Shown here: positions 47,759 to 50,590 of the stretch, piece by piece
Layout: each line of letters starts with the position of its first letter
How positions within the stretch are numbered: the stretch's first letter is position 1
Source of the DNA: an uncultured archaeon
Lineage (GTDB): Archaea; Aenigmatarchaeota; Aenigmatarchaeia; QMZP01; QMZT01
Direction: 5' to 3'
Assembly: GCA_964441265.1 (NCBI GenBank)
Contig: CAYYKJ010000003.1
Coordinates: 23,428-87,427, forward strand
DNA: 64,000 nucleotides
Position numbers and translations under genes: made by a program
The notes under the pieces: generated by a model
Told to the model about the DNA's origin: nothing
Database searches by the model: none
What the model saw: the letters and a program-made list of their open reading frames with translations, nothing else

Positions 47759-50590
47759 TTACTTCTTTCCTCTCTTTTTCTTTCCCGATTTTTTCCCGGA
47801 TTTCTTCTTCTTTGTGGTACCTTTCTTGCCAGCGGATTTTGTTTTCCCGGTCTTCTCCCCGGTTTTACTGCCGGCCTTCTTTCCGGAAGACTTCTTTTTC
47901 TCGGATTTTGTCCTGGCTGATTTCTCTCTCTTGGACTTCTTTGTTTTCTTCCTGCCGGAGGACTTGGGTTCCCCGGCCTTCTTTTTCGTTTTCTTTTCAG
48001 TTTTTTTCTTCTTGCTTCTCTTTCCGGAGCCCGGCCCCTTCATACCCTTCATTCCGCTTATCTTCCCGCTTTCCTCCGGTTTCTCCCTTTCTTCTCTGGG
48101 AATCTGCTCCCCGGGGAACCTTCCGATCAGCCTGAAAGCCCCTGTCCCCAGGGGTATGACCTGATTCATTATTATGTTCTCCACCTGCCCTCGAAGGGAA
48201 TCCCTTTCACCGTTTATTGAGGCGTTGATTATGTGCTTTTTTGTCTCCTCAAAAGACATCCTGGCGATCACAGAGGGCTTGCTCCCTGCGATTCCGTACC
48301 TCCCAATCCCCATTATATTACCCGAATACGTCATCAGGTCGGCCAGAAGGGAGACGTATCTCGGGTCGACCCCCAGCCCCTGCTCCTCTATGGTGTGGAC
48401 GGCCTCCTGTATTATCGCATTCCTGGCCGCCTCTATGCCGAGAACACTACATATCTCAAATATGTTGTTGCAGGTGGTCTTTGTCGGATCCACCCCTTCC
48501 ACAGCCAGTATCTTCTTGAGGTTGGAACCGAGGGTGCTTATTATCCATCCCTCATCCTCTTTGCTCACAATAACGTGGGAAATGCCCTTTACTCCCTCTA
48601 TATGGGACTCCATGACCTTGTATTTCAGCTTGTGGAGGTTGATGTTCTCGGTCTTCTTGGAGGTCACGGATATCTCGGAACCCTGGACATCGACATCCAC
48701 GTTCTTTATCTTTATGTGCTTCTTCAGGTCTTCCACGTCCAGATTGAAATCCCTGAGCTTTTTCTTGTTGAGCTTGAGCCTTATGACCAGGTTTATGAGA
48801 TCTATAACGTCACCCACCACGAAGTCCCTGAGCTTGACCTCCTTTATTTTCTTTGCTACCTTGAGCGCCTTTTCCTCGCTCTGGTAGTCCTTCATAAGGT
48901 GTATGGTCATGCTGGGCGTTTCCGGCTTTTTCTTCGCGTCGTATATCTCGATTAGACGTGGCAGACCCAGGGTTACCTGTATGCCTGCGACCCCTGCGAA
49001 ATGGTAAGTCCGCATCGTATTGTGGGTTACGATCCCGTCGAAAGTAGTGAACGTTTCCGTCCCCTCCACGGTGAAATCATATACATAATCATTGGACGGC
49101 CTTACGCGGGAAATCTCGGTTATCTTATCCCAGACCACGTCCGAATTGAGCATTGTCTTCATGACCTTCAGTTCATTTTCTATGTCGATGCCCTTTGATT
49201 CGGAGAGTCTTTCAAAAATACCCACGTATTTGGCAAGGGTCGATCTTCCTATTCTCTGTCTCCCGGTGAAATTGTTGACATATCTCGTGGGGTAGCCCAG
49301 CTTTTTCGCCGTCCTTAGGAACAAATCCCCGAATCCTCCCACCATGTCGGTGAAGTCCTGGAATTTACCATTCTTCCCAAAAAACCCGCATAGCCTCTCG
49401 AGTCTCTCCTTCTTTTCGTCAACGGAAAATCCTATATTCTCCCTGAACAGACCGGCATATTTATAGGGTATCGCCAAATTGAACTGTTTGTCAATGCTCT
49501 TGTTTGCAAATATCCCGAACCTTGTCAGCAAGAGCTTGATACCGTCAATGAGCTCCTCCGAATTGGACGATGCCCTTATCATCCCCCTGTCCACTGAGAC
49601 ATTGCCGTCCCCGTCGAAATACCCCTTCAGCAGCCCGGACACGAACTCCTTCTTTGCGCCATATGAGAAATATGGAACCCTTTTCGAGCCCGAGCCGGTA
49701 CCGCAAACCGCCTTCATCAGTCTGCTCAGGATAATGGAGTTTATCCTTATGTCATGTCCCTTTGAGAAACCGCGGAAATTGTCATATTCATTGAAGGTGA
49801 ATCCGTGCGATCTGGCGAACTTCCTGATTTTTGAAAGGAATTCACTGTCTACGTTGGAGAAGGAAACGTAATATTTCGTGGATTGACCTTCGGAAAGGTA
49901 TGCCCCGAAAATCCATCCCAGGGACTTGTCAAGGTCGATTTTTTCGGGGAGGGGCTTCCTAATGAAAGAATCGGTTTCCCCTATGGCATCCTTCAAATCA
50001 AGGGACTGGAGACAATTTTCAGACAGAAATTTCATAGAGGGAATCCTGCTACCGATTTTCAGTTGTTTTCCAGATATCGGGACTATTTTGTTGTTTTCCC
50101 TGACAACGAAAGAATGGGAATCGGTGGCCGTTATTTCTCTTCCTGAAAGGGTTCTGATTTTTATCAGTTCTTCGGGTGCCTTGTGCCTGCTGCATGAAGA
50201 AACCCTTTTCCACTCAATCTTCTCCTTGCCAGTTATGCTGGGGACAAAAACTTCCCCATCAGAAAAATCGAATATCTCCCAGCCGTTCTCTTCTTTCTTC
50301 CCGAAGACATCCATAACACTGTCCACGAATTCCCCGATTTTAGGTGTTATTATGCATCCATTATTCTTCAGTATTACCCTTTCGTTGTGATCTAGGGACA
50401 TCTGGGTGGCCGGCTCGGATAGCGACTGGGCCGCAACGACGCCCATGGCCTCCTCCGGATAATAGAGCGCCTTGTTGTAAAGCACCCTGACCCTTCCGAT
50501 CAGTTCTGCGGAGTCCATGCCATTCTCTTTGGCGTATTCCTCCACTTCCTTCCTTATCTTCAAAGGCAGTTCTCTCATTTTATCATCCAT
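47759..50590 (-). CDS. rpoA2: DNA-directed RNA polymerase subunit A'' carrying an intein and a C-terminal Lys-rich tail
   Basis: Exteins ...[14 protein letters not shown] | [25 protein letters not shown]... match conserved A'' blocks. The 943 aa total breaks down to a normal A'' of about 360 aa, a 460-aa intein, and a tail of about 120 aa. Confidence 0.9.
   Translation of the reverse strand: [943 protein letters not shown]
49019..50398 (-). mobile_element. Intein with a LAGLIDADG homing-endonuclease domain inserted in rpoA''
   Basis: Begins [10 protein letters not shown] right after TQM and ends ...FDGIVTHN followed by the extein T. Two LAGLIDADG motifs ([14 protein letters not shown] and [13 protein letters not shown]). 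Confidence 0.8.

Follow-up and report, generated by a model that had tools for sequence, protein, structure and literature searches.

A 64,000-nucleotide (nt) stretch of DNA from an uncultured archaeon (contig CAYYKJ010000003.1, positions 23,428 to 87,427; this whole stretch is called the window, and all positions refer to it) carries rpoA2, the gene for RNA polymerase subunit A'' (RpoA'' or Rpo1C), and the encoded protein is interrupted by 460 amino acids (aa). The question raised by this locus is what these residues are and how a polymerase subunit could be made from such a gene. The data described below make it highly probable that the insertion is a mobile class-1 intein, lying in frame in the trigger loop, which splices itself out and carries a homing endonuclease. 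The initial annotation had placed a 460-aa insertion at 49019-50398, after ...SEPATQM and ending in ...VTHN before a threonine, and translation reproduced these coordinates and sequences exactly. The N-extein ended with ...SEPATQM at aa 64 and the intein with ...GIVTHN at aa 524, and the reading frame of the 943-aa precursor was unbroken through 47759..50590 (minus strand). The precursor was divided as follows.

47759..50590, minus strand: rpoA2 (RpoA''/Rpo1C) precursor open reading frame (ORF), 943 aa and stop codon (ORF call; Pfam RNA_pol_Rpb1_5, 1.9e-38; NF011491, 874 bits)
50399..50590, minus strand: N-extein, precursor aa 1-64, ending ...AAQSLSEPATQM (translation; alignments to A'' structures and to intein-free A'')
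49019..50398, minus strand: intein, 460 aa (1380 nt), precursor aa 65-524, Ser1 to Asn460 (translation, Pfam, search of Protein Data Bank (PDB) sequences, alignment, fold)
47759..49018, minus strand: C-extein from Thr+1 (codon 49016..49018), including a Lys-rich tail and the stop codon (translation; A'' alignments)

Comparison with profiles and structures confirmed that the insertion was a canonical class-1 intein with a HINT splicing domain. Pfam RNA_pol_Rpb1_5 matches flanked it on both sides. The intein and LAGLIDADG profile searches proposed in the initial annotation were both positive: Pfam Intein_splicing covered intein residues 9-460 (E=9.9e-21), and LAGLIDADG_3 also matched within the insertion (E=6.6e-16). 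The NCBIfam models intein_Nterm (47.1 bits, cut-off 24.5) and intein_Cterm (TIGR01443; 26.8 bits, cut-off 15.6) were exceeded as well. The precursor scored 874 bits against NCBIfam NF011491 (cut-off 783), an A'' equivalog model whose 860 positions are enough to include an intein; the match was a single stretch from precursor aa 12 to 821 (model positions 19-846), which began in the N-extein, crossed the intein and ended in the C-extein. When PDB sequences were searched with the intein (phmmer), PI-PkoII (6.5e-21) and the Mja and Mvu TFIIB mini-inteins (1e-17) aligned to both HINT halves, up to the terminal ...VTHN. The features of class 1 were present, namely the Ser1 nucleophile, the T-x-x-H motif, the block F Asp, H459, N460 and Thr+1. 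Blocks A, B, F and G, whose absence the initial annotation had considered fatal to an intein, were all found with their catalytic residues. A class-3 intein was ruled out by Ser1 and by the class-1 chemistry of blocks F and G. The following parts of the intein were assigned.

50024..50398, minus strand: HINT N-terminal part, intein aa 1-125 (PI-PkoII and TFIIB mini-intein alignments; beta-rich, predicted local distance difference test (pLDDT) 85-97)
50363..50398, minus strand: block A with Ser1, within the HINT N-terminal part
50105..50146, minus strand: block B with T92 and H95 (T92-D-S-H95, a T-x-x-H motif)
49364..49936, minus strand: LAGLIDADG core, intein aa 155-345 (LAGLIDADG_3; alignment to the PI-PkoII endonuclease domain; I-DmoI, TMt ~0.7)
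49883..49927, minus strand: LAGLIDADG motif 1, intein aa 158-172, catalytic E170
49661..49693, minus strand: block D with K239
49598..49645, minus strand: LAGLIDADG motif 2, intein aa 252-267, catalytic D264
49145..49363, minus strand: helical accessory domain, intein aa 346-418 (helices at 357-417 in the model; superposition on TliVMA and PI-PfuI)
49019..49144, minus strand: HINT C-terminal part, intein aa 419-460 (TFIIB mini-intein alignment, domain 2; intein_Cterm)
49043..49093, minus strand: block F with VYDFTV and D441, within the HINT C-terminal part
49019..49042, minus strand: block G, FDGIVTHN, with H459 and N460, within the HINT C-terminal part

An AlphaFold (AF2) model of the intein was built from seven allelic inteins and had a pLDDT of 87.6 and a predicted template-modelling score (pTM) of 0.88; intein aa 126-154 formed a linker that was poorly predicted. 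Foldseek superposed the full length of the model on TliVMA (7qss; E=2.5e-26, template-modelling (TM) scores 0.77/0.81), PI-PkoII and PI-PfuI. The mini-inteins 5o9i, 4e2t and 6rpp superposed on the HINT part only (root-mean-square deviation 1.5-2.7 A), and I-DmoI covered only the endonuclease core in the middle of the intein; both I-DmoI and I-Tsp061I matched with TMt ~0.7.

The insertion point lay between Met64 and Thr65 of mature RpoA'' (TQM/T, the slash marking the insertion point). This place, described in the initial annotation as a highly conserved block of A'', may be defined more precisely as the catalytic trigger loop, as it is known from Rpb1 and beta-prime. The conceptually spliced A'' had 483 aa, with ...SLSEPATQMTMR as the predicted junction peptide. 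Its residues 7-366 aligned with T. kodakarensis A'' (4qiw_C, E=1.1e-88), aaqslsepatqm-tmrtyhfagva of the window facing aaqsigepstqm-tlntfhyagva of 4qiw_C without a gap, and the alignment to P. furiosus Rpo1C was also gapless across the junction. The exteins thus rejoined into a contiguous A'' sequence, and the possibility raised in the initial annotation that they would fail to do so was not borne out.

Alignment to intein-free A'' genes, which had also been suggested there, confirmed the site not only with 4qiw_C but also with close relatives. A search with the spliced exteins returned thousands of A'' proteins, the closest of which were intein-free, annotated as Aenigmarchaeota and 77-80% identical. 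In these closest proteins ...SLSEPATQMTMRTYHFAG... was invariant, and the junction was identical to that of the window. Because the closest A'' proteins belonged to Aenigmarchaeota, it was concluded that the host was an Aenigmarchaeota-like DPANN archaeon. The locus L082, which encodes the relative P0068, proved to be a fully syntenic intein-free locus with the order rpoB'-rpoA'-rpoA''-L6-L32e. In a BLASTN comparison, the window region and L082 were about 75% identical in DNA on either side of the intein position, and the window sequence showed a single gap of about 1.37 kb relative to L082, at about 49028..50396. Across the insertion site, 51 of 60 nt were identical, and the empty site of L082 was centred on GAGCCGGCAACCCAGATG/ACCATGCGAACATACCATTTC, around L082 position 3183.

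The distribution of related inteins was determined with two kinds of search. The intein homology search returned 66 proteins, nearly all of which were A'' precursors with full-length identities of 37-59%; it missed the window's own protein, which was attributed to word-index sampling, and this protein was found by an exact-sequence look-up. The aligned homologues all occupied one position, QM/S...THN/T, some of them with a partly deleted endonuclease, and DPANN examples of the A'' intein are already labelled as such by the NCBI annotation pipeline. Non-allelic inteins in other hosts (P0062-P0066) were only 25-27% identical to the window intein, whereas A'' inteins were 37-73% identical. Genomes (one per GTDB species) were scanned with the pattern of LAGLIDADG motif 2, L[RKS]GYF[DS]GDG, and the best 80 of 420 confirmed candidates were used. 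Homologous inteins, 39-73% identical, were present at the same site in the genomes of at least 77 other archaeal species, mostly DPANN. Among the matches listed, the best allele belonged to an uncultured archaeon (73% intein identity), Aenigmatarchaeota came next (about 57-61%), and further hosts were Woesearchaeota, Micrarchaeota, Nanoarchaeota, Pacearchaeota, Thermoplasmatales, Methanolliviera, Methanosarcinales, Archaeoglobaceae and Natronomonas.

Wherever the intein ends were readable, in 77 loci, the form was TQM/(S or C)...HN/T. The residues T92, H95, K239, D441, H459 and N460 were invariant in 78 of 78 alleles, as was Thr+1, and E170 was kept in 76 of 78. D264 was kept in all 78, a count that is partly circular because motif 2 served as the scan pattern. 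Position 1 was Ser in 72 alleles and Cys in the remaining six (L016, L037, L038, L039, L042 and L050), so the nucleophile was switched within one allele family. Direct comparison established the anatomy of the insertion, its exact site, its relationship to known inteins and the fact that intein-free alleles exist.

These comparisons left hardly any probability for two other explanations of the insertion. One was that it arose as an assembly chimera or artefact, for which no supporting point was found. The reading frame is continuous, and the architecture recurs in the other genomes; this explanation was rejected because the identical 943-aa protein, with the same neighbours, was present on an independently assembled contig (Logan SRR7048220, L001). 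The other explanation, which was given the same minimal weight, was that the insertion is a permanent, non-splicing, lineage-specific domain of the trigger loop, like SI3 of bacterial beta-prime. Some bacterial trigger loops do tolerate large insertions (PMC11077087). However, the splicing residues were invariant in the 78 alleles, and the insertion was missing from the closest relatives. An SI3-like domain was rejected because Pfam and the fold search gave only HINT and LAGLIDADG matches, and neither gave a match of the insertion to the sandwich-barrel hybrid motif.

A separate observation concerned the trigger loop itself. In some A'' genes of Aenigmatarchaeota and Woesearchaeota (L011, L017, L019, L020, L022, L024, L037, L061 and L078; P0003, P0006, P0008 and P0043), the sequence just after the intein was TMRSYTLASQSDRL..VTHGLPR rather than TMRT(F/Y)H(F/Y)AGVA, with the near-universal trigger-loop His and the FAG motif replaced. 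Because these genes were directly downstream of rpoA' in all five loci checked (L011, L019, L020, L061 and L078), they are considered canonical rpoA2 genes and not paralogues.

How the subunit could be made from the interrupted gene follows from the chemistry of class-1 inteins. rpoA2 is a single-copy essential gene of a canonical operon, so the cell could not survive a trigger-loop insertion that failed to splice. Because the catalytic residues are conserved and the gene is essential, autocatalytic excision and ligation may be inferred. Splicing would begin with an N-O acyl shift at Ser1, helped by T92 and H95 of block B, after which the N-extein would be transesterified onto the hydroxyl of Thr+1. 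Asn460 would then cyclise with the help of H459 and block F D441, and an O-N shift would remake the peptide bond in ...ATQM-TMRTYH..., restoring the trigger loop. In this way, the HINT domain (intein aa 1-125 and 419-460) would excise itself from the 943-aa precursor and leave a functional A'' of 483 aa. Since the 52-kDa insertion sits in the trigger loop, the unspliced precursor is not expected to be a working subunit, and since rpoA2 is essential and single-copy here, splicing would have to be efficient.

The freed intein is predicted to act as a monomeric endonuclease with two LAGLIDADG motifs. Both motifs noticed in the initial annotation were present, and the features of the two-motif monomeric fold, two helices with one catalytic acid each, the pseudo-dimeric alpha-beta-beta-alpha-beta-beta-alpha arrangement and the block D lysine, were found. 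Judging from the retention of E170, D264 and K239 and from the confident fold of the model, the endonuclease appears intact, in agreement with the earlier suggestion. Judging from other archaeal inteins, the helical accessory domain is probably a further region that binds DNA. The endonuclease would most likely cut intein-free rpoA2 across the insertion point, roughly at ...GAGCCGGCNACCCAGATG/ACNATGCGNACNTACCATTTC..., and the intein would be copied into the empty allele as the break is repaired (homing). The empty site of L082 provides a candidate target.

The presence of the intein among near relatives was patchy. The relatives nearest by extein (77-80% identity) had no intein, and the nearest intein-bearing relative among the matches listed, L002, was 72% identical in the extein and 73% in the intein. 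The empty near relatives, the less similar extein of L002 and the decaying endonucleases of some alleles fit an ongoing cycle of gain and loss. When intein and extein identities were compared over 2485 pairs, they were correlated (r=0.72), which fits mostly vertical descent. The intein was more similar than the A'' extein in 1902 of these pairs. In discordant pairs such as L037 (Aenigmatarchaeota) and Woesearchaeota, the inteins were about 60% and the exteins about 40% identical, which is suggestive of occasional transfer between lineages. The G+C content was 45.9% in the intein, 49-54% in the exteins and 49.1% in the window.

Several of these results weigh against a mobile, active element, and they should be considered together. 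Splicing, cleavage and homing of the window intein are deduced from its sequence. The endonuclease was eroded in the homologues P0006, P0008, P0034 and P0043, so not every member of the family can be taken to be active. D262, D264 and G265 lie in the scan pattern, which makes their conservation partly circular. The G+C content of the intein was only modestly lower than that of the flanking sequence, and the composition gave no strong sign of recent or foreign arrival. It may accordingly be asked whether the intein splices but its endonuclease is inactive or lacks targets, the element having become fixed and being passed on vertically as a passenger at a late stage of the homing cycle. The correlation of intein and extein identities fits the mostly vertical descent of such a passenger, several alleles have lost parts of the endonuclease, and the composition of the intein is nearly that of the host. 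However, both catalytic acids and K239 were kept and the endonuclease was modelled with high confidence, the emptiness of the closest relatives by extein and the lower extein identity of L002 are the patchiness expected of an element that is still gained and lost, and the discordant pairs also disagree with purely vertical inheritance. This explanation was therefore considered unlikely, although it deserves more weight than any other alternative; even if it were right, the identification of the insertion would be unchanged.

A mobile intein that is merely tolerated must also be distinguished from one whose splicing is used by the host. Other archaeal inteins are reported to splice conditionally, and splicing, and with it RNA polymerase maturation, might be gated by redox state, temperature, salt, the binding of nucleic acid or a similar environmental cue. 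In line with this, the precursor must be inactive until splicing frees the catalytic trigger loop of the insertion, and the intein was the better conserved partner in the 1902 pairs mentioned above. However, no sensor feature was seen in the sequence, neither position 1 nor position +1 holds a Cys for a redox disulfide, and close relatives do well without the intein. In addition, insertion into a conserved active site is the normal mark of target choice by homing endonucleases (PMC2814812, PMC4760082). Such a conditional switch was therefore regarded as very improbable, and the mobile, self-splicing class-1 intein remained the preferred explanation.

The surroundings of rpoA2 were those of an RNA polymerase operon, with the genes of ribosomal proteins L6 and L32e downstream and the following genes upstream.

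54881..56350: rpoB'', upstream of rpoA2
53073..54884: rpoB', upstream of rpoA2
50590..53076: rpoA', directly upstream of rpoA2

The ATG of rpoA2 overlapped the stop codon of rpoA1 by 1 nt (window 50588..50592), so that translation of rpoA'' may be coupled to that of rpoA'; in L082, the relative without an intein, 7 nt lie between these genes. At the other end of the gene, the last 113 aa of RpoA'' (47762..48100, minus strand) formed a low-complexity tail with 39% lysine. Similar Lys-rich tails of about 40-140 aa were found in close intein-free Aenigmarchaeota A'' proteins (P0067-P0114), P0110 being without a tail, and the 16 intein-bearing A'' homologues of other lineages in the aligned set had none. 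The position of the tail is where eukaryotic Rpb1 has its linker and C-terminal domain, and at a guess it might bind nucleic acid. Other ORFs of the window, namely rpoA1 and, outside the RNA polymerase operon, eight of at least 450 aa, were scanned with Pfam for inteins. No further intein was detected among these nine ORFs of at least 450 aa, including Top6B (22932..24626, plus strand); the two rpoB halves were not part of the scan. Top6B is a frequent intein host.

For annotation, the gene should be described as an intein-containing rpoA2 with a mature product of 483 aa, and the intein should be cut out before A'' phylogenies are made. Beyond correct annotation, the significance of the locus is small. 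Nevertheless, the A'' allele occurs much more widely than published records show, above all in DPANN, and giant-virus RPB1 inteins share its site. The combination of cysteine-free Ser1/Thr+1 chemistry with an intact-looking endonuclease could make this intein a candidate reagent for protein engineering or a candidate rare-cutting nuclease.

Comparison with known systems shows what is new here. Archaeal RNA polymerase inteins listed in 2006 comprised only Mja rPol A', Mja rPol A'' and Nph rPol A'' (PMC1635734). Later, 10 genomes were found to carry a halobacterial "rpolA" intein allele (PMC4071816), and the 14 archaeal RNA polymerase inteins of a 2016 survey were without exception euryarchaeal (PMC4760082). 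A literature search gave nothing specific on the exact insertion residue of Mja rPol A'' or on inteins of DPANN or Aenigmarchaeota. The view in the initial annotation that inteins at this site are known in a few methanogens was too narrow, since they occur also in haloarchaea (PMC1635734, PMC4071816), in the at least 77 species genomes described above and in RPB1 of giant viruses. The rPol A'' allele of Methanocaldococcus jannaschii (Mja) and Natronomonas pharaonis (Nph) in InBase has the same host protein and the same HINT and LAGLIDADG architecture as the window intein. The site TQM/T is common to Natronomonas sp. L079, whose intein is 39% identical over all 460 aa, and to the proteins P0038 and P0039 from halobacterial metagenome-assembled genomes. 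Because the site is shared with Natronomonas and the NF011491 cut-off was passed, the window intein was assigned to the rPol A'' allele family. Its site is probably also that of Mja rPol A'', judging from the match to NF011491. The hosts of the Mja and Nph inteins are euryarchaeal, whereas the window host is a DPANN archaeon (Aenigmarchaeota-like), and the window intein was at most 73% identical to any other A'' allele among the matches listed. Only the host lineage and the sequence are new; the allele family has been in the literature since 1996-2006.

The inteins PI-PkoII (2cw7), TliVMA (7qss) and PI-PfuI (1dq3) have the same order of HINT N-terminal part, LAGLIDADG core, helical region and HINT C-terminal part as the window intein, with Foldseek E values of 1e-22 to 1e-26 and TM scores of 0.65-0.81, although their sequence identity to it is only 18-19%. 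They are non-allelic, their hosts being DNA polymerase B, V-ATPase subunit A and ribonucleotide reductase. PI-PkoII has 537 aa with long insertions, whereas the window intein lacks these insertions and is shorter.

Inteins in the largest RNA polymerase subunit of giant viruses and eukaryotes have been reported (PMC10710043). In IMG/VR contigs of giant viruses (Nucleocytoviricota; L084-L109), the RPB1 inteins occupied the homologous trigger-loop site, GEPSTQM/S...VHN/TLNTFHLAGV, and shared 29-35% identity with the window intein along almost the entire intein. Some viral RPB1 genes carried tandem trigger-loop inteins (L088, L096 and L103, also L085, L090, L095 and L098-L100), the second intein, of about 490 aa, starting with SVDWDT... 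three residues (TLN) after the first. In L088, L096 and L103, where the ends were read, the second intein ended in ...VRD, ...VKD or ...LKD before TFHLAGV, with Asp in place of Asn. One could imagine that a single intein family at TQM/T in DPANN, Euryarchaeota and giant viruses has crossed phylum boundaries more than once, perhaps also the one between archaea and viruses, and/or has been kept because its splicing gates RNA polymerase maturation; this broader scenario was considered improbable. The giant-virus inteins share the site and the homology of the window intein and differ from it in their host protein, which is a viral or eukaryote-type RPB1.

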